Shown one piece after another: positions 18,715 through 64,000 of a DNA stretch of 64,000 bases. How positions within the stretch are numbered: the first letter of the stretch is position 1; every line of letters begins with the position of its first letter. The stretch is taken from the NCBI RefSeq assembly GCF_020745735.1, contig NC_083418.1:5677374-5741373 (forward strand), written 5' to 3'. The notes beneath the pieces were generated by a model that searched no databases, was not told where the DNA came from, and saw only the letters and a program-made list of their open reading frames with translations. The DNA is from Hemiscyllium ocellatum. Its lineage: Eukaryota. The position numbers and the translations under genes are program-made.

Positions 18715-21580
18715 CTACACTAGCCCAATAACCTCCATATGCTTATCCAATTCCCGCTCAAATGACCATAAAGAGGGAGAGTCCACCACTGCTACTGGCA
18801 GGGCCTTCCAAGAACTCACAACCCGCTGAGTAAATAATCTACCCCTAACACCCCTTAATTTAAAGCTGTGCCTCCTAATAACAGCTGACTCCATTATTGG
18901 AAAAAGATTCTCACTGTCAACCCCATCTAAACGTCTAATCATCTTGTACAGCTCTATCAAATCTCCCCGAAACCTTCTTTTCTCCAATGAGAACAGCCCC
19001 AAGTGCCTCAGCCTTTCCTCATACGATCTTCCTACCATGCCACGCAACATCCTGGTAAACCTCCTCTGCACCCGTTCCAATGGCTCCACATCCGTCCTAC
19101 AGTATGGCGACCAAAACGGCACACAACACTCCAGATGAGGCCGCACCAGAGTCTTATAAAACTGCAACATGACCTCAGGACTCCGGAACTCAATTCCTCT
19201 ACCAATAAAGCCCAGCACACCATATGCCTTCTTCACAGCACTATTACCATGGGTGGCAACTTTCAGAGATCTGTGTACATGGACACCAAGATCCCTCTGC
19301 TCATCCACACTACCAAGTAGTATACCATTAGCCCAGTAATCCATCTTCTTGTTACTCCTACCAAAGTGAATGACTTCACACTTAGCTACATTGAACTCCA
19401 TTTGCCACCTTTCTGCCCAGTTCTTCAATTTATCTATATCCCGCTGTAACCTGCCACATCCTTCTTCGCTGTCCACAACTCCACCGACTTTCGTATCATC
19501 CGCAAACGTGCTCACCCAGCCTTCACGCCCCTCCTCCAGGTCATTTATAAAAATGACTAACAGCAATGGTCCCAAATCAGATCCTTGTGAAACATCGCTA
19601 GTAAGTGCACTCCAAGATGAACCTATACCATCAACTACTACCCTCTGTCTCCTTCCAGCCAGCCAATTCCTAATCCAAACCTCTATTGCACCCGCAGTGC
19701 CATACCCCCGTAATTTTTGCAGTAGCCTACCGTGGGGTACCTTATCGAACGCCTTGCAAAAATCCACATACAGCACATCTACTGCTTTACCCTCGTCCAC
19801 TTCCTTGGTCACCTTCTCAAAGAACTCAACAAGGTTTGTGAGGCACAACCTGCCCTTCACAAAACCATGCTGACTATCCTTGATCATATTATACCTATCC
19901 AGATGTTCACAAATCCTATCCCTTACAATTCTCTCTAAGACTTGGCCACAACAGAAGTGAGACTCAATGGCCTATAGTTACTAAGGCTATGCCTCCTCCC
20001 CTTCTTGAACAAGGGTACCACATTCGCTATACTGCAGTCTTCTGGCACTATTCCTGTAGACAACGATGACATAAAAATCAAGGCCTATGGCTCCACTATC
20101 TCCTCCCTAGCTTCCCAGAGGATCCTTGGATAAATGCCATCGGGCCCAGGGGACTTATCTATTTTCATCCTTTCCAGTATTCCCCAGACCTCTTCCCTAC
20201 ATACCTCAAGGCCATCCATTCTAATCACTTGTGACTCAATACTCACATCAGCAACAATGTCCTGTTCCTGAGTGAATACTGACGAAAAGTATTCATTTAG
20301 TGTCTCTCCAATCTCCTCTGCCTCCACGCACAACTTCCCACTACGATCCTTGACTGGACCGATACCTACCCTCGTCATCCTTTTTTTCCTGACATACCTA
20401 TAGAAAGCCTTTGGGTTTTCCCAAATCCTACCAACTAAGGAATTTTCATGTCCCCTTCTCGCTGCTCTTAGCTCTCTCTTTAGATCCTTCCTGGCTACCT
20501 TTTCACTCTCAATCGCCCCAACTGAATCTTCACACCTCCACTTTACATAGGCCGCCCAATTCCCTTTCACAAGGGATTCCAATTCCTTATTAAACCACGG
20601 CTCCCTCACAAGACCCTTTCCTCCTGGCCTGACTGGTACATACTTATCAAGGACACCCAATACCTGCTCCTTGAACAAGCTCCACATATCATTTGTGTGC
20701 TTTACTTGAAGCCTATTTTTCCAATCAACGCATCCTAAGTCATGCCTCACCGCATCATAACTTCCCTGCCCCCAGCTATAACTCTTGCTCTGCAGTGCGC
20801 ACTTATCCCTCTCCATCACTAGAGTAAAAGTCACCGAGTTGTGGTCACTGTACCCGAAGTGCTCACCTACCTCCAAGTCTAACACCTGGCCTGGTTCATT
20901 ACCTAGAACCAAATCCAGTGTAGCCTCACCTCTTGTTGGCCTGTCTACATATTGTGTCAGGAAACCCTCCTGCACACATTGGACAAACACCGACCCATCT
21001 AATGAACTCGAGCTACAGTTCTCCCAGTCAATATCTGGGAAGTTAAAGTCCCCCATAACAACCACCCTGCTACCTTCACTCTTTTCCTGAATCATCCTCG
21101 CAATATTATCCTCTACTTCTCTAGGACTATTAGGAGGCCTGTAGAAAACACCTAACAGGGTGACCTCACCTTTCCTATTTCTAACCTCAGCCCAAACTAC
21201 CTCAGATGGCAAGTCCTCTTCCATAGTCCATTCCACTGCTGTAATACTATCTTTGACAAGTAATGCCACACCTCCCCCTTTTTTACCCCCATGTCTGATC
21301 CTACTAAAACATTTAAACCCTGGAACCTGCAACAGCCATTCTTGTCCCTGTTCTACCCACGTCTCTGTAATGGCCACAACATCGAACTCCCAGGTACCAA
21401 CTCACGCTGCAAGTTCACCTACCTTATTTCTTATACTTCTGGCATTGAAGTATACACACTTCAATCCACCCTTCTGTTTACAGGCACCCTCCTTCGAGAT
21501 CGCTGCATTATTCATAACCTCCCTACACTCAAGGTCCTGTACCCTGAAGCTACAGTCCAGGTTCCCATGCCCCAGCGGAG
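18715..21580 (-). pseudogene. CR1 ORF2 (APE endonuclease plus reverse transcriptase), disabled
   Basis: YFNARS, ITETW, YRPP, MGDFN, SDHN, KSPGPDG, QHGF, AFDKV, QGS, FADDTK. In-frame stops at 21402 and 20085, plus a frameshift between 20084 and 19888. Confidence 0.95.
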
Positions 21581-22507
21581 TTAGTTTAAACCCTCCCAAA
21601 GAGCACTAGCAAACCTCCCCCCAAGGATACTGGTGCCCCTCAGGTTCAGGTGTAGACCATCCTTTTTATAGAGGTCCCACCTTCCCCAGAAAGAACCCCA
21701 GTTGTCCAGAAACCGGAATCCCTCCCTCCTGCACCATCCCTGTAGCCACTCATTTAACTGCTCTCTCTCCCTATTCCTCGACTCTCTATCACGTGGCACG
21801 GGTAACAAACCAGAGACTACAACTCTGTTTGTTCTAACTCTGAGCTTCCAACCTAGCTCCCTGAAAGCCTGTCTGACATCCTCACACCTCTTCTTACCTA
21901 TATCGTTGGTGCCAACGTGGACCACGATCTGGGGCTGCTCCCCCTCCCCCTTAAGGATCCGGAAAACACGATCAGCGACATCACGTACCCTTGCACCTGG
22001 GAGGCAACATACCAAACGTGATTCACTGTTGCCCCCACAAAACCGTCTGTCTGTACCCCTCACTATCGAGTCCCCAAGAACTATCGCTCTACCTTTCTCC
22101 ACCCTTCCCTTCTGAGCAACGGGGCCAGGCTCCGTGCCAGAGGCCTGAACCTCGTTGCTTGCCCCTGGTAAGTCATCCCCCCCACAAGTATCCAAAATGG
22201 TATACTTGTTCTTGAGGTGAATGACCGCAGGGGGTCCCTGCACTGGCTTCCTCCTCCCACTCCCCCTCACTGTCACCCATCTATCTTGAACTTTCGGAGT
22301 AACTACTTCCCTAAAGCTCTGATCTATGACCCTCTCTGCCTCCCGAATGATCCGAAGTTCATCCAAATCCAGCTCCAGTTCCCTAACACGGGCTTGGAGG
22401 AGCTGGAGATGGGTGCACTTCTTGCAAGTGTACTCAGCAGGGACGCTAATGGCTTCCCTCACCTCATACATGTTGCAAGAGGAACATTGCACTGCCTGCA
22501 CTGCCAT
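21581..22507 (-). CDS. CR1 ORF1p: Zn finger, leucine zipper and SGNH esterase; open 308 aa
   Basis: CSSC..CKKC; LQLLQARVRELELDLDEL; IVLGDSIVRG, VVHVGTND, DGLHLN. Confidence 0.93.
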   Translation of the reverse strand: MAVQAVQCSSCNMYEVREAISVPAEYTCKKCTHLQLLQARVRELELDLDELRIIREAERVIDQSFREVVTPKVQDRWVTVRGSGRRKPVQGPPAVIHLKNKYTILDTCGGDDLPGASNEVQASGTEPGPVAQKGRVEKGRAIVLGDSIVRGTDRRFCGGNSESRLVCCLPGARVRDVADRVFRILKGEGEQPQIVVHVGTNDIGKKRCEDVRQAFRELGWKLRVRTNRVVVSGLLPVPRDRESRNREREQLNEWLQGWCRREGFRFLDNWGSFWGRWDLYKKDGLHLNLRGTSILGGRFASALWEGLN

Positions 22508-22957
22508 CCCTCTAAAAAGCTAGCTTTCTTTAAAAAAAACTAAATGTAAAGAAACCAAACAAGCAAAACGCAGCTCTTACCTGCTTGCCGCAACGGGTCT
22601 TATTATTTAGGTTAGAGGAGGAGGGCGGGTGGGAGGCTCTTCTGCCAAAGTGCCTCGGGTTACTCGCCTGCGCGTTTAAATAGAGAAAAAACCCTACCCA
22701 GGTAACCTAGCAACACAAGCCTCCGGGTCTACCCGGCGTTATTTTTAAAAAAAACTTTTTAAATTTTTAGTTTAAAAAAGTTTAAAAAAAGTTAAGTACT
22801 GGAACTTACAACTTAAATTTTTAGTTTTTAAAACAAAATAAGAAAAACTAAGAACTGGAACTCACCCTGGACTTCGAACCGGACAAACAGCCGTCACGTG
22901 ATCCTCCGAGAAACTGAGGCCTACAGCTCGCCTGCGCGTTTAAATAGAGAAAAAAAT

Positions 22958-29399: not shown

Positions 29400-30720
29400 A
29401 ATAAATTATTCGGAGAGATCTTTCTCAACCATGCTCCAACCAGCGTGTACGTTCGGGTTCAGCCTTTTAGCTCCCATTGTGCTGTTATGCAACACATCAA
29501 CGGAAATCACTGGTTTCGTCTTCGACCCACATCCATCTTTCCAATGCCTTTTCTAAAGTGCCAAGGCTATCACAACATGCAGTGAGAACACTTGAACGTT
29601 TGTCCTTCAGCTTGCTTCATTGCTTTCCCTTTTACCCAAATGTAAACTTGCCCTTACCAAATGATGAGTTCTCTCTTCTCCTCGTTATATCTCCCACAAA
29701 TTGAAATTGATGTCGGAAGTTGGACTTTGATTGATGAAACAACTCGTTATCATCAGCCTTTTCAACTACCACGGTAACACTTTGCGCTCTCTAGTCTTAC
29801 AAAATTTGTCATTATATCACGAAGGAAACTTCTGAAATCCTCCAAAATAATCGGTTTTGTCCGAGTTTCAACTGCTCGATCTATTTTCTATGCCCTTATC
29901 CACGTGCCAACGTTACTTTGATTCTTTCAAAATCAGTGTATGGTTGATCAGGGTCCCTCCTTAGATTACCAAAACCTCGTCTGCACGCTTGTGGTGCTAA
30001 CTCATCTGCACTTAAGATGGAATTCTTTGCCTCCTCATTTTCCCCACATACATCCCCTGACAGTGATGCAAGTAACTCGAGAATTGTATCTACAAACTTT
30101 GTTTGGATCAACAAATCACATATGGTTACCATTCGCGTAATTTGTTTAACTACTTTCTGAAATCACATGAGAATACATTTACCTGCTTCTCATCGAACGT
30201 TGCAATGCTTGCACAAATTTAAACAGACATCCCTGGGGCTTAGCCTACGATAGATTTGCTCGTCATCACTTTCCTGCTCACTAAGGTGACAGTGTTACAT
30301 GTCCTTTAAACTCGACTTCGATGCTAACTTCTGAAGATCAAACTCTTTCTACTTTTCTTCTGTGTAGTTCTCATTTCTTCTGTCTCTTTCTCTTTTAATA
30401 ATACATAGACATCCCTATTCACTTTTCCTTTACTTTTAAACGTACTTCAAATAGTTTCATTTCCTTTTCTAGTTTCTCCTTTGCGTGCCTCGCGAAATCT
30501 CACTACTCCAATATTGCAGTGTTTACATGCACAAGGCATTTAGTGAATACCCATTTTCCCGGCAGCAGCCAGTCTCCCCATTCAGAAAAAGTCAACCTTT
30601 CCCATCGTCTTCGGCTCAAAATTAAAAAAGATGATATGACTTCCTGGATAATGGCGACATTTGCGATACACAGCTCAAAACACCCTCCTGCTCACAACAC
30701 ACCCCTTTAAAAAGAAACAC
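29400..30720 (-). mobile_element. Gypsy (Gmr1-type) gag relic with SCAN-related capsid
   Basis: LLIQTK..ASLSGDV..EEAKNSILSADELAPQACRRGFGNLRR..YTDFERIK, then across frameshifts WIRA*KI..IILEDFRS and EKADDNELFH. Confidence 0.75.
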
Positions 30721-31949
30721 TTCAAATATCCGATGTGTATTGACGGCAATGGGTCCACTGAGAACATCAGGGAGCACAAGCAACAGTTACAATGTCTGAA
30801 CCGGTCAGTGAACCCCACAGTACACACTGTATCATGATGTCCTATAATCGCTCTCCTTTTATGTGATATGCTGCCTACTTTCCATTCGTGTTACAAAGTG
30901 CACATGTTTACATTTATCGACACTGTGTTCAATTCATTAAATTGTTCACATGTCTACATTCATTTGCAGACTCTCCATCTGCTCTTGCTAATGTAACTCT
31001 TTGCCTATAATGATGTCATCACTACATTTAGATACACTGAAATTTTGAGACATCATCAAAATCAGGAAAATCGACATTTCGGGCAAGGGTTTTAATCTGC
31101 TCCTCGGATGTTGCCTGACCTGGTGTGCTTTTTCCAGCACTGCACTCTCGATTCCTTCAGCCAGGCAACAAATGATGGATCAAAGGATCTGCTTCAAAAA
31201 TGCTTAGGAATTATATGTTCTTGCTCTTTAGGGAGTGCAGCGAAGGTTTACCAGGCTGATTCAGGGGATGTTGGGACGAAGATATGCAGAGATTGACTTG
31301 GTGAGGATTGTTACACCAGAGTTCAGAAGAATGATTTGAGGGGTGGGGGGGGGGGCGGGCTGTTGGGTGGTGGAGATCAAATTGAACCTTAAAATATTCT
31401 AACAGGAATAGACAGAGTAGGTGACAAATTTCTCTGATAATGAGAACAAAACTGCACACAGCATTTAAAATGTCACGTCACCAAGGCACAATGCATTCCT
31501 GCTCCTGTACTCAACCTCTCACAATGAAGGCCAATATGCCATCCTTTGGTAACATACTAACGTTACATTGGTTGAAAATACATAATCTAGTCTACATTTG
31601 CGAAAACTTTACAGACAAATCACGCTGATGACCTCTGAGAACCAACGTGGTTTCAAGGAAATATGATGTGCTTCACGTGGACACAGGCACAGAAATATAT
31701 ATGCAGTTACACAAATGAACACACACATACACGCATAAACAAATGAACAAACACTATACAGGATGGCATCATGTGTTTAAGAATATGCAAATCCGCACTT
31801 TGCCAATTACGTCTTGAATCGTGGAGTTGATTTGCAATGGAGATTTGAGAGATCATGTGTCCACTTTCAAGTGGGCCCTATTCTGAGGTAAATCGGAAAA
31901 TACTACTTTTGGACAACAGTTCTCTGTACAATTTCTTCTTGAACATAAA

Positions 31950-34900
31950 TTGTATAAGATAGGAACGGAAGAGACTAATCAGCCTTTCAAGTCTACTCCG
32001 CCATTCATCATCATCATGGCTGACCATCCAGCTCAGTATTCTAATCCTGCTTTCTCAACATAACCTTTTTCCCATTTTCCCAAACGCTATAGCTTGACGC
32101 CTCTTGTGTACATTCCAATTTTGGCATCAACTACTTCATCTGGTAATGGATACCATAGGCTCAAAAGTCTTTGTGGTGAATAAATGTCTCCTTGTCTTTG
32201 TCCTAAATGGTCTACCTTGATTTTTTAGACAGTGACCACTGGTTCTGTACATAACCGCCATCGGGAATATTTCCGTTAATCTACACTTTCTTGTCCTGTT
32301 AAAATTATATAACCTCTTTGAAACTCGTCCACCCTCCATTAGTCTGAAGTCCGGTGGAAACAATTCCAAAGCAGTCAATCTCCTCATATGACAATCCCTC
32401 CATCCCCGGAATCAGCCTGGTAAACGTTCACTGTATTTCCTCGAGAGCAAAAGCATTCTTTTTCAGAAAAGGAGACTAAACAAAACTCAATATTCGAGGT
32501 ATGGCCTCATCAAGGCTCTGAATAACTCTAATGCACATTCCGACTCATATGCTCGAAAGCTCTCTCAATGAAGGCTAATATGTCATTTGCCTTCTTTACC
32601 ACCACCTGCACTTGCATTCTTCCTCCAGCGACTGGTGCACAAAGCCATCCATATCCCACCGTGGACAATTCTCTCCCAATACACAGCCAGTCAGATAGTA
32701 TTCTACCGTCTTGTTTTTGCTTCCAAAGTGAATGTTTATCCAAATTGTATCTGCCAATGGTTTGCACAGTTACCAAACCTGTAGAGATCATGCTGAAGAA
32801 TGTACAAGTGCACATTACAGTTCAGCCTCCCATCTAACTTGATATGATCTGAAAACGCTGTGATGTTACAGTGAGTCCCTTCATCTAAATCGTTAATATA
32901 TATTGCGAGGAGCTGGGGGTCCCAGCAATGATTCCTATGGCACGCATTTGCGAACTGCCTGTCAATGTGACAAGGACTCATAAATTCCTCCTTTTTTTTC
33001 CTCTCTAACAGTCAGTTTCTATCCAACTTATTATACTTCCCGCAATCCAATGAACTTTAACTTTGTACAGCAAAATATGCAGCACGGTGACTCAGTGGTT
33101 GGTGCTGTTTCCCAAACCAGCAGGAACCCGGGTTCGATTACAGCCTCTGGCAACTGTCTATGTGGAGTTTTCACGTTCTCCCCGTGACTCAGTGGGCTTC
33201 CTCTGGGTGCTCCTGTTTCCGCTACAATCCAAAGATGTGCAGGTCAGGTGGATTGGCCATGCTAAATGGTTCAGATTGTTCAGGGGTTGGGCAGGGTAGT
33301 TACATTAATTGGGTGTAAATATAGGATGACATGTTGGGCAATGGATCTGGTTAGGTTACTCTGAATTTGTTGAGTGTGGACATGTTGAGCCGAAGGGCTT
33401 TATCCACATTGTAGGGATACTAATTCTAATCTCTTATGTGGGACTTTGTCAAATGCTTGCTGAAAATCCAAATATACCATATCAACTGACTCCCACTTGC
33501 CAGCTCTACGAGGTGCATCGTCATAGAATTCCAACAGATTCGTCAAGCATGACTTCCCCTTCATTAATCCATGCCCATTCTCTATGATCTTGCTGTTAAT
33601 TCCTAAATGTTTCGCTTTAAAGTCCTTGATAGTGGATTTGAAATTGTTTCACCACAACCGATGTCAGGTGTACCGGTCTATAATTCCTGGTTTTTGTCTG
33701 TCTCCCTTTTTGAATACTGGAGGGACATTCGCTTTTCTTAACTTCGCATGGATTGTACCGGAATGTATAGAATACTGACAACCAGTGCATCCACTCGTTC
33801 AAGAATCACTTCATGAATTACTCTGGCACATAGAATATCAGGCCCTGGGGGTTTCTCCACCTTTACTCACATCAATTTTCCCTGCACCAGTTCTGGACCA
33901 ATGTTGATCACTCCCTGTTCTTCCCTCTCACTAAAAATTGCATTCTACAATATTTCTGGTATCTGATTTGTCTACTGTAGTAAGAGATTCCCACAGCACA
34001 GACAGTCCTTTTCCCAAATTGGTCCATGTGAACCAAAATGGCAATCCATTCTGAACTGATTGATCATTTAAGGTTATGCCAGAACAAGTATGGAATTGTT
34101 TTCTCCGGAGATGGACGTCAGATATGAATTGTTGACATTTCCCCCTGCCATCTTAAACTGATACCCTCAACTCCTCAATTCCTCAACGCTGGGAAACTGC
34201 TGAGTGCATGCCTCTCATCGTCTGCTACATTTTTCACAGATTCCATTTCTGTCTCCTACCCAGTAAATTGTAAGTTCCTGGCTCGTACAAACACTCTGAC
34301 GAGTCCTGGCATTAACCAATTAAATTTCTACTGCACTCTTTTCAGTCGAATAACATCTGTTCTATTGCGATGTATTTAAAAATGAACGCAATAGACCAAG
34401 TGGAACAGTTGTTGCAATTTTCAAATGCATTCCTTGATTTGTTTCCCCATTGTCTATGCCCTGTCATCCCTTGAATTAACTCTCACCAATCCATCAAGTC
34501 CAATTCATGCCTCATATCGTCATAATTTTATTCATTAAGATTCAACACCATTGTCTCAGAATCTACTCCCTCAATCTCTATCTTGATTTTTAAAAGTTCC
34601 ATCATGTCATTGTTGCTCTTCCCCAAGGGATCTTGCACAGCTACTTTGGAAATTATTCGCTTCTCATTATAGAGAATCCAATCCAAGATGGCCTGCTCTT
34701 TAGTTGGTTTCTCCACGTATTGGTAAAGTAAACCATCCCATATACAATCCAGGAATTCCTCCTGTACCCCATTATGATTAATTGTTTAGCAGATTAAAAT
34801 CGTCACTGATATTCCTATATCACCTGCACCCCTAATTTCCTTTTTAGCGCCATTGCTGACATCACTGCCGCATTGTGGGGGTCTGAATATTAATCCCACT

Positions 34901-34960
34901 TATATTTTTGCCCCTTGTTTTTCTTAACTCTAACCATATCGACTGCATATTTTCAGAGCT
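31950..34960 (-). mobile_element. Old CR1 ORF2 (EN to 3' end) with internal insertions
   Basis: EKPTKEQAILDWIL..LGKSNN (34528), NYRPVHLTSVV (33617), IYINDLDEG..FSDHIKL (32736), YRTSGHCLK (32136). Confidence 0.88.
33079..33430 (+). mobile_element. HE1-type V-SINE nested in CR1
   Basis: gcagcacggtgactcagtggtt A box, cccgggttcgatt B box, V-domain tgtggagttttcacgttctccccgtg. Confidence 0.9.
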
Positions 34961-35814
34961 GATCTCCCCAAAAGAGATGAATGAAAATACATGACCAGCA
35001 GTTGACATATTTTGCAATAACGATGACGTTGAGTTGAAGTTAATTAATCTTTTCCGCGTCCAACGAGTTTTTTTTTCATAATACTGCAGCTAAAACCTTA
35101 ATATGATGAGATGAAATAAGTGTGGAATTGCTTTCTCAGTAAATGGACGTCCGATATGAGTTGTTGATATTTTCATCGTAAATGTAATAGCAGTGCTTCT
35201 CCAGGAGGTGGAAGTGAGGACTGATAGTCGACATATTCAAGACTGTTGTGAAACACTGCGAGAATAATTGCAAATTAATTCCCAGTTTTCTTAGTAAGGT
35301 CAATACTCTTGCCCATAACAGCATAACATGTTGTTGGTAGACGTGGCATAATGTAAGTAAGCTTAACTATAACTCAGACATAGGCTTCATCATTAATAGA
35401 TGTAGAGTCCATACAGACAGAGGCCAGAAATACTAAAGGAACGATGACGCTGCTGGAATAATTTTTCGATCATGAAATGATTTATAAAGCATGACAGAGA
35501 TCAGTGGATAATGGTGCATGGAAAGAAAGGCAGCATATTAATCAGTGGCAAATTAATCTTCAAATCAATTGACAGTCCGTTTGGCAAAGGTGATCACAAA
35601 GAAGAATTCATATAGCTTCCTCGAACAATATGTTGTGGATCCAACCTAGAATTCCGATGTTTTGGATCAGATAATATTCAATCAGTCAGATTTTATACAT
35701 GGTGACAGACTGAAAGATTGACTTGGAATTTCAAAATTATAGCAATTCGTTGAGGGGAAGGATCTTACATCAGAAACAAACGTGCTCAGCTAATATTAGA
35801 ACAGACCAGTTTCC

Positions 35815-36020
35815 CGACAGTGTAGAAATAGGCCCTTCGGCCCATTTAGTCAACACCGAACCTTGAAAGAATAACCCACCCAAACCCATTCCCCTCAACC
35901 GACAATCAACCGGCCCATCCCTGACCACAATGGACAACTTTGCGCAGTCACTTCTCCAGACATACACAACCTCAGATCGTGAGGTGACACCCACAGAGAC
36001 AGAGGGACAATGGGAAAATT
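35815..36020 (-). mobile_element. HE1-type SINE, 3' portion
   Basis: acagtgtagaaataggcccttcggccc..cccacccaaacccattcccc..cacagagacagagggac. Confidence 0.7.
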
Positions 36021-36789
36021 TCATTTAAGGAAACAACCAAAAGACAATTCTGAGAGGGGAAGACCTCCAGCTTTCACCTACAGCATAACAGATGTGGCAG
36101 CTTTTCACCAACCTAGCAGCTTCTGCTGAAAGCGAAACTAAATATCCTGGTTCTTTGGGTGGGAGTTTGACCGCACCTATTCAGGGTGCTTCTATTGTTT
36201 CAACTTCAATTTTAAAAAAAACAATGCTTCATAAGTTGTTTATTTTCTCATGAGTTGCTCGGCACTTGTTCCATAATCTCTGTCTCCAAAGAAGCCAAGA
36301 CAAAACACACCTCACAAAGCTACGATATCGTCACACTTTTGAGGTAACTGTTACTTTTAATTATTGGTTTGAAAAGCTCTCACTGCCACTGAAACATTCC
36401 TGTTGTTATCCTGTGTACTATCCATTAACTGGGACTGTTAGATTAGTACACCATTCCATTACAATGGTGCCAAGTGAGAACCAGTGTGGCAGGAAGAAAT
36501 CTCAATTGACCTTGGTCCTTCTGTCTGGAAATGTCTATCTACCTCATGACAAACACCAATCATTAAGAAACAAGAGAACTTGGGTCATGGTGAGTGTAAG
36601 GGAGTGGGAGCTGAGAAGGCAACAGCTGAGCACTGAAGAGAAGGAGGGATGAGAAATGGCGAGAGGGAATGAAACATTATGGGTGGGGATAAGAAGTTCG
36701 AATCCTCTCTGAACCTGAGCAGTGTCACCAACCTGTTAGTTTATACTTCACCATGGTGTTTCACTGGACAGACTCCAACTTTGCATTCC

Positions 36790-37700
36790 ACATATGTGAG
36801 GAAGGGAGCCCTCAGGCACATAAGCCCAGTGGAGGGGTCCTAGACAAATCTACAAATTGATTTGTGGATCCCCTTCTCCCAACTATGAGAGGATATCAGT
36901 AGATCCTGATGATAGGAAATTCGTTCAGTAAATGGGTACAGGGGTTTGCCACTCAAACAGATACCGCTAAGATCACAGCGAAAGTCCTGTTAGGAAAGGT
37001 CTTTACTCATTTGGGTTTACCAAAGCGTATTGAACCATATTAAGGGATGCATTTATGCTCAGGCGATGCAGAATGTCATGACACTGCTCGGGGTTAAACA
37101 AAGGTGCCACATACTCTACAGACACTACCTAGTGGGATAATCAAAAGGATGAATCGATCTTTTGAACAATATGCTGGCCATAATGGTGCAGCAACACCAG
37201 CCCACTTGGCTGATGATTCTCCCTCATATCCTGATGATATTAAGAAACACTATAGCTTCCTGTACAGGACTTAATCCTTATAGAATGATGATAGGCTTGA
37301 AAACTGCATGGCTCAGAACCACTGCTGGGCGTCAAAGTAAGGACCATAAGTGGATGGTATACTAAAAGACAAATAGATACAATAGTTAGTTGACAGCATG
37401 AAAGAAGCAAATTACGTAGCGGTTAATAATATGGAACATAAAATGCAACAGAACAAAAGCTATTTTGACTCAAAAACAGCACTGACAGAATCACAGGTCG
37501 GTCAGCCGGCCTTGATATCCACACATCGAACCACACCATTCTTGACCCCTCGATTTGCCAGACCGTATGACATTATCGATAAAGCCAACCCATCAATATA
37601 CAAGGTGCTAACAGCCCCCAATAAGAGAGAGAGGGACCGCATTAACCCGTTAAAACGATTCATCAAGGAGTGCAGAATGACTATCGTAATAGACACATAA
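36790..37700 (+). pseudogene. Retroviral-type integrase core and C-terminus, disabled
   Basis: GALRHISPVEGS*TNLQID / GYQ*ILMIGNSFSKWVQGF..TAKITAKVLL..GLPKRIE / NNMLAIMV..W..ILPHILM.LRNT..TGLNPY / SYFD..FLTPRFARPYDIIDK (GPY/F motif). Confidence 0.9.
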
Positions 37701-38079
37701 TGGAAGGAGAGTATGATGCTCTGGAGATAGGGGATTTGCAGTGGGAATGGTTTTGGAACCCAGAACGGGGAACTATAGGACCAAACCGAACTGAACAAAA
37801 TATAGATCCAATAGTCGTACCACGACCTCTGAAGCCCTAAGGGATCAGATGGACTCCTCAGGCTCACAACCGAAATTAAAAAGAAGGAAAAAGAAAAAGG
37901 GAATCTAACGGATAAAACACCCATTTCCCAACTGAAGGGGAGGGATGAATGGCTGGACCCAAACCCAGATGTACATGAAGAGACCAATGATGTGGACAGA
38001 CGGAGTCTGGAATAAAACTGGAAAAAAGAGCTGAAATTACACTTGTTTTGCAGAGGGTCAAGTTAATGAGTTAGAAATA

Positions 38080-38984
38080 ATGGGAACACTATTGATTAAG
38101 GAGGCAATATTGGTGATTAGCATCACCCTCCTCCAATAGAATTCAGGAAATGCGTCAGCAGAGGTGTGTCATATAAAGAGAAGGGCTTATAATGATTAGG
38201 CCCCGGGATTTGTATTGTGAGGGAAATGAGTTGGCGATGATCATGTTGGAGCAGTAATCCTTAAGCATTTTGAAAATACCACATTTTCGTATGAGGTACA
38301 AGCCAGCCTATGAGATGAGAAACGCAGCCATCGAGTCCTCCTGCAGGTTAATCCCAAAGGGACGGGCCCCATGATGGCGGCTCCATTCCTTACATGGTCT
38401 GTGGGATTAGTAGGCCGTATACTCTCACCTGGTGGGTGGTGCTCATCCCCTGTGAAATCTGATGGCTTGGTCGAGTGGACCAGACAAGAGTGGAAGCTTG
38501 AGCCTGACTTTTCAGACACAGAGTCATTTCTACTCAGGGTGAACGAGTGGGTGCATGACCTTCCATACTGTACAGAGCTGAACCACTAAGGGCCATTACT
38601 ATGATCCCACAAACTACCCCAGAACCACAGATAGTGAATCTCAGAGAAACCCGGGGTGGGGTTGAATTGTTTTACAAGAAACAGAAGTTACACTGTTGCG
38701 AGGGTATCAACAGGACCAAGTAGTGTTTAACCTGTCAGACATATGGGGGCAGTCTGGTGTATCCAAAAAACCCGGCAGCTCTTTGATGATTTGCTCCAGA
38801 GACCACTCAGTCGTAGTGACTTTACATCGGTATAGAAAAGGAGGATTCGGTGCAGACAAATAACAGGAACCAGCTGTGCAGGAATGGCAAATTTTAACAC
38901 CCTCGATAAAGCAGAAATCGGAGATCATCAGCTACAATCCTTCCAGGAAAAAGTTGAGGATAATTATAGAACAGGGGTATCAGG
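38080..38984 (+). pseudogene. Envelope-like glycoprotein relic, N-terminal part
   Basis: Acceptor cttgttttgcag (38042-38053), then ATG MGTLLIKEAILVISITLL. NAS, NTT and NLS sequons; IVLQET..VVFNLS; a basic cluster followed by ITGTSCAGMANFNTLD and a helical segment. Confidence 0.55.
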
Positions 38985-41822
38985 ATCTGGATCGGTCTAG
39001 TAATAATGGAAAGTGCAGGTGTCGCTGATCACCATCAAAATGTTGAGGTCCCTCTAGAATATCATCAGCCAGGTCATAGACAGAATTGCTCTGAGCACGG
39101 CATGCAATAAGCACACAGCATTTTACAGCACATGTACTAGCTGGCTTCTGTCTTGGTTTGACATGAATATGTCGCAATGAGGCGCCCATAGAGTTCTGGT
39201 GTCAGATAAGGAATTGAATACATGCGTGGAGGAGACGATATTCTTATGCCACTTCAGAAACCTCAGTCTGACCGATCAGGTATTGAGTAACTGTGACCCG
39301 AAGGGGTCATCGGAAGGAGGGGGAGTCCTGGTTGTGAAAGCAAGTTCGGAGGCGGCGGCGGCAGAAGAATTGCTCGACGTCACGGCATCTATTAAATTAC
39401 TTGATGCGTGGACGAAGGGGGATGAAGGTTAATCCTTTGCTGAGCACTGATCGTTCGGCCTCAGTGAGGGGAAGGTCTGAAGGGATGGTGAAAACTCGGC
39501 AGGACCGGGAGCTGGGATCTGGGATGGGTGTGGAGTGGGAGTGGTGGTGGAGCCTTCAACAGGAGTGGGTGTGGTGGTGGTAGTAGAGGGTTGGAGTCAT
39601 GAGCAGGGGTAGTGTTCCCCTCAGCGTTCTGGTAGGCTGGGATGGTGGCAGTAGGATCTGTGGGGGGGAGCGTTTCAGCAGAATGCAGGTTTGTGGCGTT
39701 CGTGTGGGCAGAAGTTGTGGCAAACACGGCAGTGGCGTGGGCAGAAGTCACTGACGGTGTGACATCAGCGATGATGTGAGGGGCGGAAGTGTTGTCAATT
39801 GTGGTGTAAGAGGAATTGTGAGGGGCGGAAGTGGCTGTGGGAGTGACCATGATTGGGGCGGAAGTTACACCATCAATCAGTTTGGCTAATGGCGTCCGAG
39901 CAGTTCCAGAGGCCAGCGTAATGTACTGGAATGTTTGAGGAGTGCTGGTTATGGTGGTAGATAGATAAAAGTTTGTTGTACTTACAGTTTTTGATGTTTG
40001 AGATGGAATTGAAATGCTGTTTGTTGAGAGTATGAATTCTCCTGATGATGTAGCACAGAATGAATCCTTTGCAATTCTGAGAGTGTGGCCCTCAGCTGAG
40101 GCAGGGCTGACTGTGGAGAGGTTGGGTGCTGGCGCATTGCTGGGAGCATGGAGTGACAGATCTTGAAGGAGAACCATTGCTGGTGTTTATGAATCTGAGG
40201 TATGACCTGTTTGTCCTGTTCGGGTCAGAACTCTGCTGGTTGAAAGATGGTCCAGAGTCCGTGTGGGATCAGTTGGTTCCGGAGGCAGGCACTGAGGAAG
40301 CAAATGGGCTGTGGTCACGAGTTTATTTCAGGACATGGTTGAAGAGCTTCAGGGCAGAGGAAATGACCTACGAGTTGCAGTGCTAGAGGGACTCCCTGAG
40401 ATTCTTTTGGAGAGAGGAGGAAATCTTCGACAAGGCAGGCATCCTTGCAAGAGGATTCCCAGTAGGGTTAATATCAGCTAGGTAAAAACAATGGCTGCAG
40501 ATGCTGGAAACCAGATTCTGGATTACTGATGCTGGAAGAGCACAGCAGTTCCACAGCATCCGAGGAGCAGTAACATCGATGTTTCGGGCAAAGGCCCTTC
40601 ATCAGGAATACAGGCAGAGAGCATGAAGGGTGGAGAGATAAGTGAGAGGAGGATGGGGGTGGGCAGAAAGTAGCATAGAGTACAATAGGTGAGTGGAGAT
40701 GGGGATGAAGGTGATAGGTCGGGGGTGGAGTAGATATGTGGAAAAGAAGATAAGCAAGTAGGACAAGTCAGGATAAGTCATGGGGACATGCTGAGCTGGA
40801 AGTTTGGAACTGGGGTGTGGTGGAGTAAGGGGAAATGAGGAAACTGTTGAAGTCCATATTGATGCCCTGGGGTTGAAGTGTTCCGAGGCAGAAGATGAAA
40901 CGCTCTTCCTCCTTGTGGTGAGGGAGCGGCGATGCAGGAGGCCCAGGACCTCCATGTCCTCGGCAGTGTTGGGGGGGACAGTTGAAATGTGGGGCCACAG
41001 GGCGGTGTGGTTGATTAGTGTGGGTGTCCCGGAGATGTTCCCTAAAGCGCTCTGCTGGGAAGCGTCGAGTCTCCCCAATGTAGAGAAGAACGCATCGGGA
41101 GCAACGGATACGATAAATGATATTGTTGGATGTGCAGGTAAAACGTTGAAGGGTGTGGAAGGCTCCATTAGGGCTTTGGATGGCGGTGAGGGAGGTGGTG
41201 TGGGCGCAGGTTTTACAATTCCTGGGGTGGCAGGGGAAGGGGCAAGGATGGGAGAGTGGGTTGAAGGGGGCGTGGACCTGACCAGGTAGTCAGGAAGGAA
41301 ACAGTCTTTGCAGAAGGCGGGAAGTGTTGGGGAGGGAAATATATCCCTGGTGGTGGGGCCTGTTTGGATGTGGAGAAAATGTCGGTGGATGATTTGGTTT
41401 AGACGAAGGTTGGTGGGGTGGAAGGTGAGCACCAGGGGCGTTCTGTCCTTGTTACGGTTGAAGTGGTGGAGTCTGAGGGCGGAGGTGCGGGATGTGGACG
41501 AGGTGCGTGGCGGGGCATCTTTAACCAAGTGGGAAGGGAAATTGAGATATCTAAAGAAGGAGGCCATCTGGTTTGTTCTGTGGTGGAACTGGTCCTCCTG
41601 GGAGCAGATACGGCGGAGGCGGCGGAATTGGGAATACGGGTTGGCATTTATCGAGAAGGTAAGGTGGGAAGAGATGTAATCCAGGTAGCTGTGGGAGTCA
41701 GTGGGTTTGTAAAAAAAAAAATCTGTTTCAAGTCGGTCATCATTAATGGAGATGGTGAGGTCCAGGAAGGAGAGGAAGGTGTCAGAGGTGGTCCAGTTAA
41801 ATTTAAGGTCAGGGTGGAATAT
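38985..41822 (-). mobile_element. Penelope-like element (Neptune-type), partial tandem: RT thumb plus GIY-YIG, hammerhead pseudo-LTR, then the next copy's 5' ORF
   Basis: RTPLVLTFHPTNL; TCTSNNIIYRIRCSRCVLLYIGET..ERFREH; IFCLGTLQPQGIN; CTGATGA core at 40578-40605; Thr/Pro-rich N-terminal ORF 39461..40177. Confidence 0.9.
40578..40605 (-). ncRNA. Minimal hammerhead ribozyme motif
   Basis: CTGATGA A GGGC cttt GCCC GAAA c ATC: intact core, 4-bp stem II, NUH triplet. Confidence 0.65.
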
Positions 41823-42050
41823 GGAAAATCTTGAAACGTGGAACTAAGGACTGAACATTCAGGTTCACACATGGATCAGGATTCGTTCTCACGTGAGTGC
41901 TATAACACAATTTGTTGTTCTTGTAATAATAGTGCTTTATGTTTATTAAATTGGAAAGTTAGGAAATGGAAGGGACTGACAACAGGGATTGATATTGGAG
42001 GCCCAACAGTAGAGGCTTTGTCAAGGTTGTTTACTAGAGGAATGGAATAA
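41823..42050 (+). pseudogene. Envelope-like relic, transmembrane segment and cytoplasmic tail
   Basis: 41848-41949 GLNIQVHTWIRIRSHVSAITQFVVLVIIVLYVY; after a frameshift CLLNWKVRKWKGL..RGME*. Confidence 0.5.
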
Positions 42051-42329
42051 CACGGATAGATTGTTTATAGGATTCATTGCTACTCGTTTATTGGTATTTA
42101 TATTAATATTGTGCTTATTTTGTGAGCTGTGGAAAGCATAAAGCAATGTATTTCCACTGACCAAATGGAAAATGACAGGGGTATTTGAACCCACCTCTGA
42201 AACTGTTGGGCCTCTGAACCCAGGCATTCCGACTCAAAGATCGGGTAACTTCCAGAGTGTCACGTGATCCCAATTAAGAATATTCGTGGTCTGTCTCAAA
42301 TGACACTTGTGCAGAAATTGAATTTAGTT

Positions 42330-42420
42330 GTTGAGAATGTGGTGCTGGAAAGGCGCAGCAGGTCTGGCAGCATCCGAGGAGCAGGAGAATCAACATTTCG
42401 GGTATAAGCCCTTCATCAGG
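42330..42420 (-). mobile_element. Solo PLE tail with hammerhead motif
   Basis: Minus strand cctgatgaagggcttatacccgaaatgttgattctcctgctcctcggatgctgcc. Confidence 0.8.
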
Positions 42421-42487
42421 GATGAGACCAACAAATTGAAGTGAGATTAATTATATTAATCAATCTGTTTAGACGCTACTATACCCT

Positions 42488-42562
42488 TCTGGAGTAGTTG
42501 GGACTTGAACCCTGGCCTCTTATCTCAGAGACAGGGAGACTATCACTGTACCACAGAGAACC
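42488..42562 (-). mobile_element. tRNA-derived SINE head
   Basis: Minus strand gtggtacagtgatag (A box) .. gggttcaagtccca (B box). Confidence 0.55.
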
Positions 42563-42749
42563 CAACTCATAAAATCCCATTTCAATGTGTACCATCGACT
42601 CTCATTCGATCCTCCTGAGGGAAATGTGGACTTTCCTGTTTCCCCCAGAATTGTTTCATTCATTATGAGAGCCAAGTGTTGCTTTTCCTGGAGCTGAGAA
42701 GGTTCTTGTAGCTATTAGGCAAAGTAAAATTGGGCAGCCAGTCCACACA

Positions 42750-42935
42750 GTAAAAGCCCCATAGAAAATGGATTCTCTCAGCAATGAGTTGGGGAGCTGA
42801 TAGTTTGTCCTTTGGTGCTGTTGATGCAGATTATCAGACAGAGGACCCCAGTTCTTCAAAATAGTACATTGGAATCGATTATATCACACTGATAAGGTTA
42901 ACAGAACCTCGGTTTAATATCGTGTCGAAATGACA
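42750..42935 (-). mobile_element. Deu-domain SINE fragment (SacSINE1/AmnSINE1-like)
   Basis: Minus strand atttcgacacgatattaaaccgagg..gattccaatgtactattttgaagaac resembles the remembered Deu core gagacgttaaaccgagg..gatcccatggcactattttgaagaa. Confidence 0.6.
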
Positions 42936-43303
42936 TGAGGCCTCAAACATTATAACTCTTGCTCAAAACTGGACTGATGGCCTAGATTAATGGAAACGGT
43001 GAAATCTGCCCATGCTGAACTGGACATATGCTGTGGTTCTGGTCACTGGAACTATCTGAAATGCTTTGTTGTGGTTTGCTGCGACCAATTGTTCTGATTA
43101 TTGTTAGTCTATAGTATTGATACCGAGTGGGGGCGGGGAGCCACAGAAGGACGGCTCAGTCTTGATAAACAGAATTAGCTTAATATAAAACACTTGATGT
43201 CTAGTTATGTTGCATTTGAGTTATTGTCCCTGGCGTGATATGAGGTTCAATTAAAGAGTAAGATCGCATTACCATTAGCTGCATGGACTTAGCATTGGAA
43301 TAA

Positions 43304-46800: not shown

Positions 46801-46894
46801 CCACACTCTCCAGCAGCTCCGTTAAATATCATTAACCTGGCAGTGAAACAACTAACCGGATGCCCACTCTCTACTGTAGTTACTCCCAATCCAT

Positions 46895-47872
46895 TTGAGA
46901 AGTCGAAACAGGACTCACGCACCATTTTGCAAGGACACAGGCCTAAGCCCCGCCCCTTTAACCACCATCAGGACAGAACCCCACTGGTTCTCACCTACCA
47001 ACGCAACAACCTCCATATACAGCGTACAATCCGCCGTCATTTCAGCCACATCCAAACGGACCGCACCACCAGGACATATTTCCCTCCGCTCCCCTTTCAG
47101 CATTCCGAAAACTTCCTCCATGACTCCCTCGTCAGGTCCACACACCCCACCAACCCAACGTCCACTCCCAGCACCTTCCCCTGAAATCGCAACAAATGCA
47201 AAACTTGCGCCCATACCTCCCCACTTACTTCCCTCCAAGGTCTCAAGGGATACTTCCATATCCGCCACAAATTCACCTGCACCTCCACACACATCATTTA
47301 TTGCATCCACTGCACCCGATGTGGCCTCCTCTATATTGGGGAGACAGGCCACCTACTTGCGGAACGTTTCAGAGAACACCTCTGGGACACCCGGCCCAAC
47401 CAACCCGTGGCTCAACACTTTAACTCCCGCTCCCACTCCACCAAGGACATGCAGGTCCTTGGACTCCTCCATCGCCAGACCATAGCAACACGACGGTTGG
47501 AGGAAGAGCGCCTCATCTTCCGCCTAGGAACCCTCCAACCACAAAGGATGAACTCAGATTTCTCCAATTTCCTCATTTCCCCCCCACACCTCGTCTCAGT
47601 CAAATCCCTCGAACTCAGCACCGCCTTCCTAACCTGCAATCTTCTTCCTGAACTCTCTGCCCCCATCCCACTCCGGCCGATCACCCTCACCTTGACCTCC
47701 TTCCACCTATCGCATCTCCAAAGCCCCGCGCCCAAGTCCCCCCTCCCTGCCTTTATCTTTGTCTGCTGGACACACTTTCCTCATTCCTGAAGAAGAACGA
47801 ATGCCCGAAACGTCGATTCTCCTGTTCCTTGGATGCTGCCTGACCTGCTGCACTTTTCCAGCATCACATTTT
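46895..47872 (+). mobile_element. Penelope-like element 3' part (GIY-YIG plus hammerhead tail)
   Basis: DRTPLVLTY; KCKTC linker; from 47272 FTCTSTHIIYCIHCTRCGLLYIGETG..ERFREH; RRLEEERLIFRLGTLQP; ctgaaga..gcccgaaacgtc. Confidence 0.93.
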
Positions 47873-60730: not shown

Positions 60731-61499
60731 TAAATCAGATGGACTTTATTTGATGTTAGTTGTCATAGTTTCTTTTACTGAGACTAGATTTCAACTCTAG
60801 ATAAGTTACTTAATTAATTAAAATCTTACCAGTTGTCTTGATATGATTTCAATTCCTGACCCCAGAGTATTTGCCCTGGGCCTCGAATTGGTTCGTCCAG
60901 TGACAGCTAATATTTTACCATGATCTCCACTTCTGGAATGACTCAAAAGAATAAATCATTCTTGAATATGAAGTTCAGGGAGAAGCAGGAACCAATTGCG
61001 GCCGGTGAGGTGAAGAGTAATGGACAATTTTAGTTTGTAGAGTCCTTTCAGTGAACTGAGACTACTGCAGGATGGAACATGTACATCAGAAACGATGACT
61101 CTGGACATCCCGAAGTTGTGAATGAGGCTATCAATGGCAGATCGGCAGGCATGGGGCTGCTGAAAGAGACCTGAAATGAATGGCAAAAGGTGGTGATGAT
61201 TAAACAAAAATGGGATCACTCGTCTAGATTAGACAAAAAGTGGACAGATTTGTCAGCCCTGTGCTGTGTGGTAGGAATTTGGAGATGGTGATTAAAATAA
61301 GTCCAAGAAGGCTGAGATCCCATCACTAAGCCACCCTTTTATTTACACGTGAACAATACATGGACTGTGACCAGCTAGCTCAGAGCCAGTCCCTAGCGTG
61401 AGAAGAATCCACGGACTCCTATTTCTATCTGTCAGCCAAGGCTCCCCGATTGGCCCAGGTTAACAGTCCCAGTCAGGGAACTCAAACTCAATGAGAGCT

Positions 61500-64000
61500 G
61501 TTTATCTCTCTACAGCCCTTCCTCCCCACATTCTCTACGGCCATCCAACTCTTTCTCTCCCTGTCCCACTCATTCTCTTTCTATACCCTCACCCATTCTG
61601 TATCGGTATTTATTTTCTGCCCCCACTCTCACTCTTCCTATCCTCCTCACTCTCTCCGTCTCTCTTTCATGCTCCACCTTCTCTGTCTTCGTCTACGCAC
61701 TGCCACGCACTCTGTCTACAGCCTTCCATTTCCGTCTCCCTCTACCTCTCTCCCATTCCCTCTCCACACCCTCAGCCGCAGTATCTCTCCACTCCCGTCC
61801 CACTCTCTCTGTATACAACTCCCCGATTCCAATCCCATGCTCTCTCACACTCTATAGTCTCCACTCTTACTCTCTACACACTCCGCACAGTCCCTTCTCT
61901 GTATTCCCTCACACTCTATTTCTCCCTCCATTCACCTATTTCTGTGCCTCTACACCAAACTCTCTCCCATTCTCTCCCTCTCTATTCGTCCCGGTCACAC
62001 TCTCTGTGTCTCTCTCTCAATCTCATCCCCAATCCACCCTCTCTCTATCTTCCACCGCCTTCTGTCTGTCTACATCCACATTCTCTCTCTCTGTGTCTAG
62101 CCCCTTCCCTCTCTCGCGCTCTATCCAACTCACACTCCGTCTCTGTCCTCTTCCAACTCTCTCTCCCTTATACACCACCCAAACTCTCGCTCCCTCTATC
62201 CCTCTCTACCTATCCCTCGAACTTTTGTGCACTCCCTCTCTCTGTCTCTACCAACCCCTCTCTGTCGACACCACTCCCACTCTATCGCTCTACTCCCTCG
62301 TAGCTCTCGCTGTCTGTTGCTCTATTCCGCACTCGAATGCTCTCTCACTATTGCCTTCTCATTCTTTCTCTACCCTCTCCCCAACTCTCTCTGTAGTCCC
62401 TCAGAATCACTCTCTCTACCACATCCCTCTTTCTCTCTGTCTCTATTCCCTCTGTCCCACTCGCTCTGTCTCCCCCCGCACTGTCTCTCTGTCTGTGTCT
62501 CTTTATCATCTGCCACTCTCTCTATCCCTTCCTCTCTCTACCCCACTCTCACTCTCCATCTCTCTTTACCCACTTCCTTTCTCTCTGTCTAACGCCTTCC
62601 AATCTCTCTCTACCCCCTCCGCCACAATCTGTCTTTCTCTCTAACGGCTTCCCTGTCTCCGCACTACCACACACACTTGAAGCTCTCTCTCTACCCACAC
62701 CCTCTGTCTGTCCCTCTGCGTCCTCCAACACTCTCTTTACCCTCACTGTCTGTATTTCTCTAACTCCTCCCACACTCTCTTTACCATCCTCCCACTCTCG
62801 CTCCATTTCTTCCTCTATGGTCCTCCAATTGTCTCTCTCAACCCCTTTCCACACTCTCCCTGCCACTTCCTCTCTTTTACTCTCTGTGTATCTATACAAC
62901 CATTCGACACTCTCTCTTTACTACATTCTCTATCTGCAACAATCCCGCGATCTCCCTCTCAATCTCGTTGTCTGCTTCACCCCACGCACTCTCTCTCCAC
63001 CATACCACCGTCTCTCTCTATCTGTCCAACTCTACATCTACTCTTACTCCCCCTCACTCTCGCTGTCTCTTGGTAATCCCTCCCACTATCTCCCCATAAA
63101 CCCCTCCCTTTATCTCAATGTTTGCACTCTCTCACTCTCTCTCTCGTTACCCCACACTTTGTCTGTTTCCTTACCGTCTCCCAATGTCTGTCTATCGCTA
63201 TCTTTACACACCACACTCACGCTCTCGCTCAACGCCTCTCCTATTGTCTCTCAACTCCCTCCCACACACTCTCTCTCTTTCTTTATCCTGCTCTCACTCT
63301 GTCCCTATTCCACACCCCACTCCACTCCCACAGAGTCTGTCACTCTACAACCCCTCTCTCTCTGTCTCTAATCCCTCCCCACATCGCGCTCTCTACTCAC
63401 TCGTAGTCACTCTCTCTTTACCCACTCCCACACTCTTCTTCCCTTTGCCTTTTCCCATTCTCTCTCTACATCCCCGCGTTCTCTCTGTCCAACACCCTCT
63501 CATTCTCTCTCTCTGTCTAGCCCTCCCACTCTCTCTAGATATCCTACCGATTGTCTCACTTTGTCTCCCCCACTCTCTCAACTCCCACTGTCTCTACCAG
63601 CCGCCACTCTCTCTCGAACTCTCTCCGTCAAGCCACTACCTCTCTATATATCCTTCTCCCTCTCTCTCTACCTCTTCCCACTCTATTCTTGCCACCCTGT
63701 ATTCCTCTCTCTCTCTTTCTACCCCCTGTCAATCTCGATCTACATACGGCAATACCATTCTCTCTCCATATTTCTCTCTCTCACTATCTCAATATCCCCA
63801 CACTCTCTCTCTCCACCCATCTCGCACTCGCTCTCTCCACCTTCTCCCTCTCTGTCTCTAACTTCTCCCACAATGTCTCTCACTCTACACACCCACTATC
63901 TCTACCCTCCTCACCTTGCTCTCTCTCTACCCTTCTCGATCTCACTCTCTCTTTCTGCCACCTCCCTCTTTCTCCCTGCAATTATTTCTCTCTTCGACCC
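61500..64000. repeat. CT-rich low-complexity tract (degenerate ctctct/ctaccc satellite) running off the window
   Basis: Strongly pyrimidine-skewed plus strand; its ORFs are S/L/P/H low-complexity artefacts. Confidence 0.92.

Follow-up and report, generated by a model that had tools for sequence, protein, structure and literature searches.

The stretch of DNA studied here (64,000 nucleotides of Hemiscyllium ocellatum contig NC_083418.1, hereafter the window) harbours between positions 36,790 and 42,190 the remains of an integrase gene, followed on the same strand by the pieces of a retroviral envelope (env) gene into which a Penelope-like element has been inserted (Table 1). Integrase, env pieces and membrane anchor are all genuine and stem from one family of long terminal repeat (LTR) retroviruses. 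The locus is very probably a dead integrase-env fragment, truncated at both its 5' and its 3' end, from an old endogenous retrovirus (ERV) family, with a reverse transcriptase (RT) resembling that of snakehead retrovirus (SnRV; class III, "Huo" clade) and an Env protein likely to possess the class I fold of paramyxovirus F proteins. The window copy contains neither RT nor RNase H, no product can be encoded by it and no protein is made from it now.

Table 1. Features of the integrase-env fragment and of its insert (positions in the window)
Feature	Position	Strand	Evidence
Disabled integrase (core and C-terminal SH3-like part), 5'-truncated	36794..37700	+	Homology to independent copies begins at 36794-36930
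Pol-env intergenic stretch, common to family copies	37700..38041	+	blastn to independent copies, 65-79%
Likely env splice acceptor cttgttttgcag	38042..38053	+	Of 15 aligned copies, 9 have YAG at the corresponding column; one further row is doubtful
Leader and variable surface (N-terminal) region of Env, disrupted by stops and frame changes	38080..38665	+	Alignment of copies
Broken Env core with F2-like strand and helix, a degenerate cleavage site, fusion peptide, heptad and conserved Cys segment	38666..39296	+	Profile hit (E 7e-5) at 38755-39312; alignments
Penelope-like element remnant (C-terminal part of RT and GIY-YIG)	39297..41823	-	GIY-YIG, E 0.0025
Env membrane-proximal region, transmembrane anchor and basic tail (frameshifted)	41824..41990	+	Profile hit, E 6e-7
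Post-env untranslated stretch; copy ends before polypurine tract and 3' LTR	41991..42176	+	Six independent copies match to 42174-42176

The motifs of a disabled integrase, which a preliminary description of this DNA had reported, are present at 36,790-37,700, distributed over two frames with stops; the GPY/F tail mentioned there, however, reads RPY, and the Env cleavage site is a degenerate RRIR (an intact RRKR-G is seen by eye in four of 19 rows). Against the Pol protein P0005 the window integrase yields a tblastn E value of 3e-13, accompanied by a weak match to SH3_Tf2-1 (E 0.007). The reported splice-acceptor sequence, which we regard as a likely candidate for that of env, the ATG at 38,080, the hydrophobic leader and the sequons are found as well. 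This ATG, retained in three of 15 copies, is followed by a leader with a best 15-residue Kyte-Doolittle mean of 2.3 which is interrupted by a stop, and the alignment of copies reveals three sub-types of env 5' ends. The frame from 38,080 to 38,589 comprises six stops within its 170 codons, one of them being the terminal stop, together with the NAS and NTT sequons. IVLQETEV is located at 38,666 and WCIQKT at 38,755; beyond the insert, the anchor piece with HTWIRIR has a mean hydrophobicity of 2.8, while KVRKWK, likewise present, lies in a different frame. This anchor piece matches the motif W-D-WGLNVNIHPW-R which precedes the anchor in an intact shark Env (P0026). As a test against chance, a profile built solely from 14 relatives, all outside the family of the window, was compared with 324 six-frame pieces of the window. 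Two of these match, namely 41,815-41,940 (E 6e-7) and 38,755-39,312 (E 7e-5), the next piece following at E 0.63. Since one and the same outside-family profile finds both anchor and core, the two halves belong to one env.

Homology to the family stops at about 42,172-42,176, and the six independent copies which match up to this point continue jointly for several hundred nucleotides that the window lacks. The polypurine tract formerly proposed near 42,163 had to be abandoned because this purine stretch extends across the end of the element, so that gacagggg, its latter half, is flanking DNA. In fuller copies, a purine run and the start of the LTR are observed about 200 nt further on than the end of the window copy.

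The GIY-YIG match of the insert remains below the Pfam cut-off, and RT motifs can be read by eye on the minus strand both in the insert and in a duplicate of the locus; an RT followed by a GIY-YIG endonuclease is the arrangement which defines Penelope-like elements. The previously assigned span of 38,985-41,822 requires correction to about 39,297-41,823, since the frame opened at 38,755 and the matches to independent copies reach 39,296, which identifies 38,985-39,296 as env and excludes 38,985 as the boundary. Removing the insert, as had been suggested for repairing env, does not restore continuity, since five uninterrupted copies contain 611 to 697 nt more env between the two junctions than the window does. 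Judging from this comparison, about 610-700 nt of env adjoining the Penelope-like element have been deleted in the window copy and in this copy only.

Five matches at 92-93% identity and one at 86-87% are segmental duplicates with common flanks of tens of kb, and for this reason the five closest "copies" and the duplicate C108 were not accepted as independent insertions. The duplicated segment (window 30,000-43,300 and beyond) is present at least seven times (three times in C53, twice in C194, once each in C195 and C108). The C108 duplicate (85-87%) shows the same truncated ends, no Penelope-like element at the site and a long interspersed element (LINE) elsewhere in env, whereas the C53, C194 and C195 duplicates (88-91%) have kept the middle of env and carry a longer Penelope insert, which is tandem where fully covered. 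In these tandems (L017:941-3477; C194a), about 92 nt of anchor-adjacent env occur twice, once after each unit. Because of these different states, the history of the copy may be ordered as follows: a provirus would have integrated and subsequently lost both ends; a segmental duplication would have given rise to the C108 copy; a Penelope-like element would then have inserted just before the env anchor; further duplications would have produced C53, C194 and C195; and the deletion unique to the window copy would have come last. That the locus has been kept in six segmental duplicates might suggest an env gene co-opted by the host. Yet these duplicates take in tens of kb of flanking DNA and show similar decay, and stops and frame changes throughout, the Penelope insertion and the deletion of 610-700 nt leave a broken frame which refutes co-option and renders its probability negligible.

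Searches of the genome at the DNA level gave at least 39 matches with the integrase and at least 15 with the 5' part of env. We examined 24 other loci of 18-20 kb each, C108 and 23 independent ones. An integrase is present in 23 of the 24, and in 19 of these 23 it is followed on the same strand by env or the anchor (by both in 12); among loci chosen by integrase alone, the figure is 12 of 16. Fuller copies also carry RT and RNase H (E 2e-5 and 3e-8), one locus displaying RT_RNaseH_2 (the tether, E 1e-11), RNase_H (E 2e-5) and rve in this order. Their layout reads LTR, primer binding site (PBS) for tRNA-Asn, protease/RT, tether, RNase H, integrase, env, LTR. The LTR-gag-pol-env-LTR organisation with PBS and polypurine tract typical of SnRV-like elements is thus found in the fuller copies, gag by position; LTRs, PBS and polypurine tract are absent from the window copy. 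Paired LTRs, which the preliminary description had recommended looking for, occur in five copies, are up to about 590 nt long and start with TG and end with CA where preserved. With the mammalian rate that Wang and Han adopted, their Kimura two-parameter distances of 0.175-0.337 correspond to an age of about 40-77 million years, or to a higher age if, following Han's assumption, sharks have lower rates. One copy has a PBS whose 18 nt match genomic tRNA-Asn(GTT) genes at their 3' end; ARAGORN called three of four fetched loci as Asn. Coiled-coil open reading frame (ORF) pieces upstream of pol give weak Pfam matches only. A search of sequencing runs returned eight DNA-type runs with one organism label from two studies, the runs listed including no RNA.

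Regarding the affiliation of Pol, the RT fragments of the family read LDISNGFWS and W-T-x-LPQGF, as does the SnRV row in the supplement of Wang and Han, while the lokiretrovirus rows seen there show PFG in place of the LPQGF-type motif. A Pol profile search returned 14 proteins, which are Pols from frogs and coelacanth, unnamed Pols and the SnRV Pol. The frog and coelacanth proteins bear the names "NYNRIN-like" or "Gypsy integrase-like", and the closest full Pols are called "protein NYNRIN-like" by NCBI. An RT tree was calculated from 44 rows, the reference labels being inferred from motifs and the set comprising neither a lokiretrovirus RT core nor ERV-L/S or lentiviruses. Short or low-identity single-frame stretches led to the exclusion of rows from the trees (RT, 7 of 16 loci; integrase, 15 of 23, the window's row included; tether, 10 of 17; RNase H, 12 of 16). 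The nine family rows form one clade (100/98), sister to P0025 (99/97) and then to P0005 plus two younger elements of the same genome (98/94); together with SnRV and the Pols of frogs and coelacanth, this group falls into a clade (90/89, moderate) which is separate from the foamy, gamma, epsilon, alpha, beta, delta and gypsy rows. By its sequence, the RT of the family is therefore placed with SnRV-like elements within Retroviridae and not with lokiretroviruses, and the element is an env-bearing LTR retroelement instead of a member of an env-less gypsy clade.

The preliminary description had envisaged a lokiretrovirus, extending that lineage to cartilaginous fish. The dual RNase H, an F-like Env with the motif order of lokiretroviruses and the W-x-x-LQID start of the integrase are in line with this idea, which would be new as the accessible text of Wang and Han reports lokiretroviruses in none of six chondrichthyan genomes. 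It is, however, largely refuted by the RT motif and the RT tree. Furthermore, in a tree of thumb and tether, the one natural lokiretrovirus locus (L083, identified from its similarity to the rows of the supplement and devoid of the RT palm) joins the gypsy row, and a clade uniting it with the family is rejected (approximately unbiased test, AU, p=2.4e-5). Tether and RNase H fragments of the family score 1.5 to 4 times higher against SnRV-like Pols than against lokiretroviruses. The tether and second RNase H in fuller copies are common to all retroviruses and hence not diagnostic. The family integrase reads LQIDF as opposed to LQIDW in the lokiretrovirus rows seen, and the best matches of a lokiretrovirus integrase in this genome are 43% identical, those fetched (12 loci) representing other retrovirus lineages. 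Neither a viral-contig search with a lokiretrovirus Pol nor a word-based one, for which a natural RNase H fragment served as query, gave a match. We consider a true lokiretrovirus very improbable, which agrees with its absence from the six-genome screen available in PMC7947760.

In contrast to the RT tree, that of the integrase is not diagnostic. Here the lokiretrovirus integrase joins the frog and coelacanth Pols (93/93), the SnRV integrase joins foamy viruses and the family is found in an unresolved fork that also holds the lokiretrovirus, the tree containing no NYNRIN gene. Since the lokiretrovirus integrase groups with "NYNRIN-like" Pols and the family lies in that open fork, the initial impression of a NYNRIN- or lokiretrovirus-like integrase becomes understandable, and its NYNRIN part is supported by the names of the closest Pols. 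The same tree, together with a 20-row group without SnRV in the RT tree (94/72), could point to a separate, unnamed deep lineage consisting of the family, two other shark lineages and the frog and coelacanth Pols, being only a loose neighbour of SnRV and equipped with an integrase of lokiretrovirus/CGIN1 type. But SnRV has the same Env type and RT motifs, the Huo clade is already described in the accessible text of PMC6001957 as wide and present in all vertebrate groups, and integrase swaps are known in retroviruses (PMC7947760). We therefore judge such a lineage improbable, if slightly less so than a lokiretrovirus, and retain the assignment to the SnRV-like clade, in which the family is new and distinct.

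The relatives of Env were sought with a profile of 16 natural fragments among 1.84 billion proteins, which gave nine matches: eight named proteins, each of them belonging to a shark or ray genus (Scyliorhinus, Heterodontus, Pristiophorus, Pristis or Mustelus), and one unnamed long protein. The horn-shark protein is 50% identical to a family Env fragment. A second search returned 23 proteins including the unbroken 714-residue Mustelus Env (P0026), which displays a leader, an RSKR-G site, heptads and an anchor preceded by a W-x-WGLN motif as in the window. Among the relatives, a Pristis TRP-pyrexia-like gene model (P0020) opens with some 75 residues derived from this env family, which probably reflect the mis-annotation or exonisation of an ERV piece. 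Aligned by hhalign, the shark relatives match SnRV Env with an E value of 3e-6 over 197 columns (controls: foamy, 0.017; gamma, 0.068), the homology extending from the cleavage site through the Cys-rich part. Through these relatives the class I layout claimed for the window receives support, and signal peptide, RXKR, fusion peptide, coiled coil and anchor, by which together with kinship to F the lokiretrovirus Env is characterised, are all found; kinship to F is likely, as indicated by a low-confidence model. By eye, the lokiretrovirus Env rows have the same order of motifs as the shark Envs (GP-x-G-I-VL, RXKR, L-x-I/L-P, NVG, CP).

As to the fold, the ESM Atlas ranks Fusion_gly first for P0015 (0.95; 47% of the cluster's members) and Baculo_F/Gypsy env first for P0023, such clusters scoring 0.93-0.95; we count both results as one source of evidence. 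An AlphaFold model was made of the distant intact relative P0026 (mean pLDDT 47.6, 162 residues at 70 or more). Foldseek superimposes it in the PDB on the F protein of respiratory syncytial virus (RSV; E 8e-4), then on Langya F, foamy Env (E 0.011) and human parainfluenza virus 3 F, human metapneumovirus F also being among the leading matches. Elsewhere it matches F0 of Sunshine Coast virus (E 9e-6) and the Envs of foamy and walleye dermal sarcoma viruses (E 0.003-0.004). The latter (BFVD A4GTG3, E 0.004, probability 0.72) is a lead that the Env of fish epsilonretroviruses also belongs to class Ib. The model and the ESM Atlas thus lend indirect support to the F-like Env claimed before, and the Env likely shares the fold class of the F proteins of RSV and measles-type viruses. 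The Baculo_F/Gypsy env clusters and the wide occurrence of F-type env in Ty3/gypsy elements, of which the accessible text of 10.1101/2023.10.26.564294 reports, would also fit an env-bearing, errantivirus-like Ty3/gypsy element, or a mononegavirus F gene captured beside an integrase by chance. The structure of the family refutes both, as dual RNase H, the retroviral RT clade and the same integrase-env-LTR order at many loci are observed instead of an RT within Metaviridae and a single RNase H; we hold either to be scarcely conceivable.

Several observations weigh against the assignment to an SnRV-like virus with F-type Env. The fold is predicted for P0026, a distant relative reached via a profile hit with E 9e-4 (P0023), whose model gives TM-scores under 0.2 and a high root mean square deviation. 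No fusion family was detected in Pfam scans of the window and copy Env pieces, the nine profile hits and 28 aligned relatives, and PDB sequence searches with two Env profiles gave nothing under E 0.4. A family-only Env profile matches SnRV Env weakly (E 0.023), and in hmmsearch SnRV Env (E 1.7) performs worse than the foamy Envs (0.03-2.3), whose weak signal lies at one shared region across the foamy rows. In the RT tree, the clade with SnRV reaches 90/89 only and the branch of SnRV itself is long. The trees of integrase, RNase H and tether do not unite SnRV with the family and contain long-branch joins. The rejection of lokiretroviruses is based on one natural locus and about 210 columns, with no lokiretrovirus RT core in the RT tree. 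The window's own integrase row fell below the tree cut-off and, itself lacking RT, the window is tied to the family by DNA identity of 65-79%. Finally, gag is inferred from its position, with no confirmation from the Pfam scan.

If the fuller copies reflect the ancestral virus, it would have primed reverse transcription on tRNA-Asn and inserted its DNA by means of its integrase. Env would have been made from a spliced RNA and cut by furin at RRKR, and fusion peptide and heptads may have brought about membrane fusion via a class I hairpin. The variable N-terminal region of Env is likely the attachment part. SnRV has a spliced env RNA and accessory ORFs.

In the genome (G000), this Env type also follows the SnRV-like Pols of two other lineages, one of which is up to 74-99% identical to Chiloscyllium proteins. 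A much younger SnRV-like lineage (L149:2406-4835, L151:2247-4259, L153, L154:2182-4614, L156 and L160 on C8, C6, C15, C106, C1 and C5) is about 70% identical to P0005 in its Pol. Its env frames, of the same F-type, are long and open, and the N-terminal part of Env gives a weak Ig_3 match (E 0.005). A third lineage with this Env type (L158, L159, L161 and L162 on C2, C109, C9 and C6) is 60-70% identical to Mustelus P0026; its RNase H groups with SnRV and gamma/epsilon and not with the window's family. An abundant ERV of the epsilon/gamma side (L163 and L164 on C17 and C112) possesses an open pol; its env, about 810 codons long, does not match F-type queries. Within the window, a LINE whose frames are largely open and which comprises a GDSL-esterase ORF1, endonuclease and RT lies at 18,715-22,519 (minus strand), and a second Penelope-like remnant (GIY-YIG, E 7.5e-4) at 46,880-47,790 (plus strand). 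Long ORFs which overlap one another and have no Pfam match form a block at 61,397-64,000 (plus strand). In a search for host genes, none of the 100 unmasked ORFs (of 168 listed) matched Pfam.

Taken by itself, the locus is a dead piece of a provirus of the ordinary kind; it is of value as a pointer on envelope origins. An F-like Env is no marker of lokiretroviruses, and consequently Env-based "lokiretrovirus" calls in fish genomes need an RT check. A shark clade which combines the RT of retroviruses proper with a lokiretrovirus- and F-like Env tied by sequence to that of SnRV favours an F-type Env in the common ancestor. Tentatively, the F-type (class Ib) fusogen might be ancestral to retroviruses as a whole, shared by descent in lokiretroviruses, foamy viruses, SnRV-like class III viruses (with at least three lineages in this shark genome) and perhaps walleye epsilonretroviruses, with the gamma- and beta-type Envs as later replacements; we would rather not favour this proposal over its negation at present. 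The accessible text of Wang and Han notes no overall similarity between lokiretrovirus and retroviral Envs and leaves four scenarios of Env origin open, between which shark ERVs, if the proposal is true, would decide as the missing branch on the orthoretrovirus side. Our literature search found no paper stating that the SnRV-like Env is F-type, the accessible part of PMC12583693 included; Calcraft et al. 2024 (Cell), which may do so, lay outside its coverage. The accessible text of bioRxiv 2021.11.23.469661 deals with gamma-type Env only.

With SnRV and SnRV-like class III ERVs the family shares RT clade and motifs, dual RNase H and a homologous Env, but it differs from SnRV in the type of its integrase, its tRNA-Asn primer site and a shorter N-terminus of Env. 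SnRV-like ERVs in a cartilaginous fish, the elephant shark, have already been published, among them CmiERV lineage I (PMC4422223), which is related by its published description, its sequences standing outside our comparison. Lokiretroviruses, according to the accessible text of PMC7947760, have an RT sister to all other retroviruses, an integrase sister to CGIN1/NYNRIN and, in some cases, an smc-like gene; their six screened chondrichthyan genomes (supplement) include three Orectolobiformes. They resemble the family in the F-like layout of Env, in tether plus RNase H and perhaps in the NYNRIN/CGIN1-like neighbourhood of the integrase, whereas the family has a retroviral RT of LPQGF type inside Retroviridae and the shark Envs have an additional variable region N-terminal to their F core. 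An smc gene was not seen, although no search was aimed at it. Foamy Env, a class Ib fusogen related to paramyxo- and pneumovirus F in the accessible text of PMC11468914, resembles the family Env in its place among the top Foldseek PDB matches and in the weak hmmsearch signal; the family Pol, however, is not foamy, the sequence similarity of the Envs is not significant, and the variable module, N-terminal to the F core in the family, lies between the subunits in foamy Env. The F-type env of Ty3/gypsy errantiviruses and the baculovirus F protein likely belong to the same fold family, from which the family is set apart by its retroviral Pol with dual RNase H.

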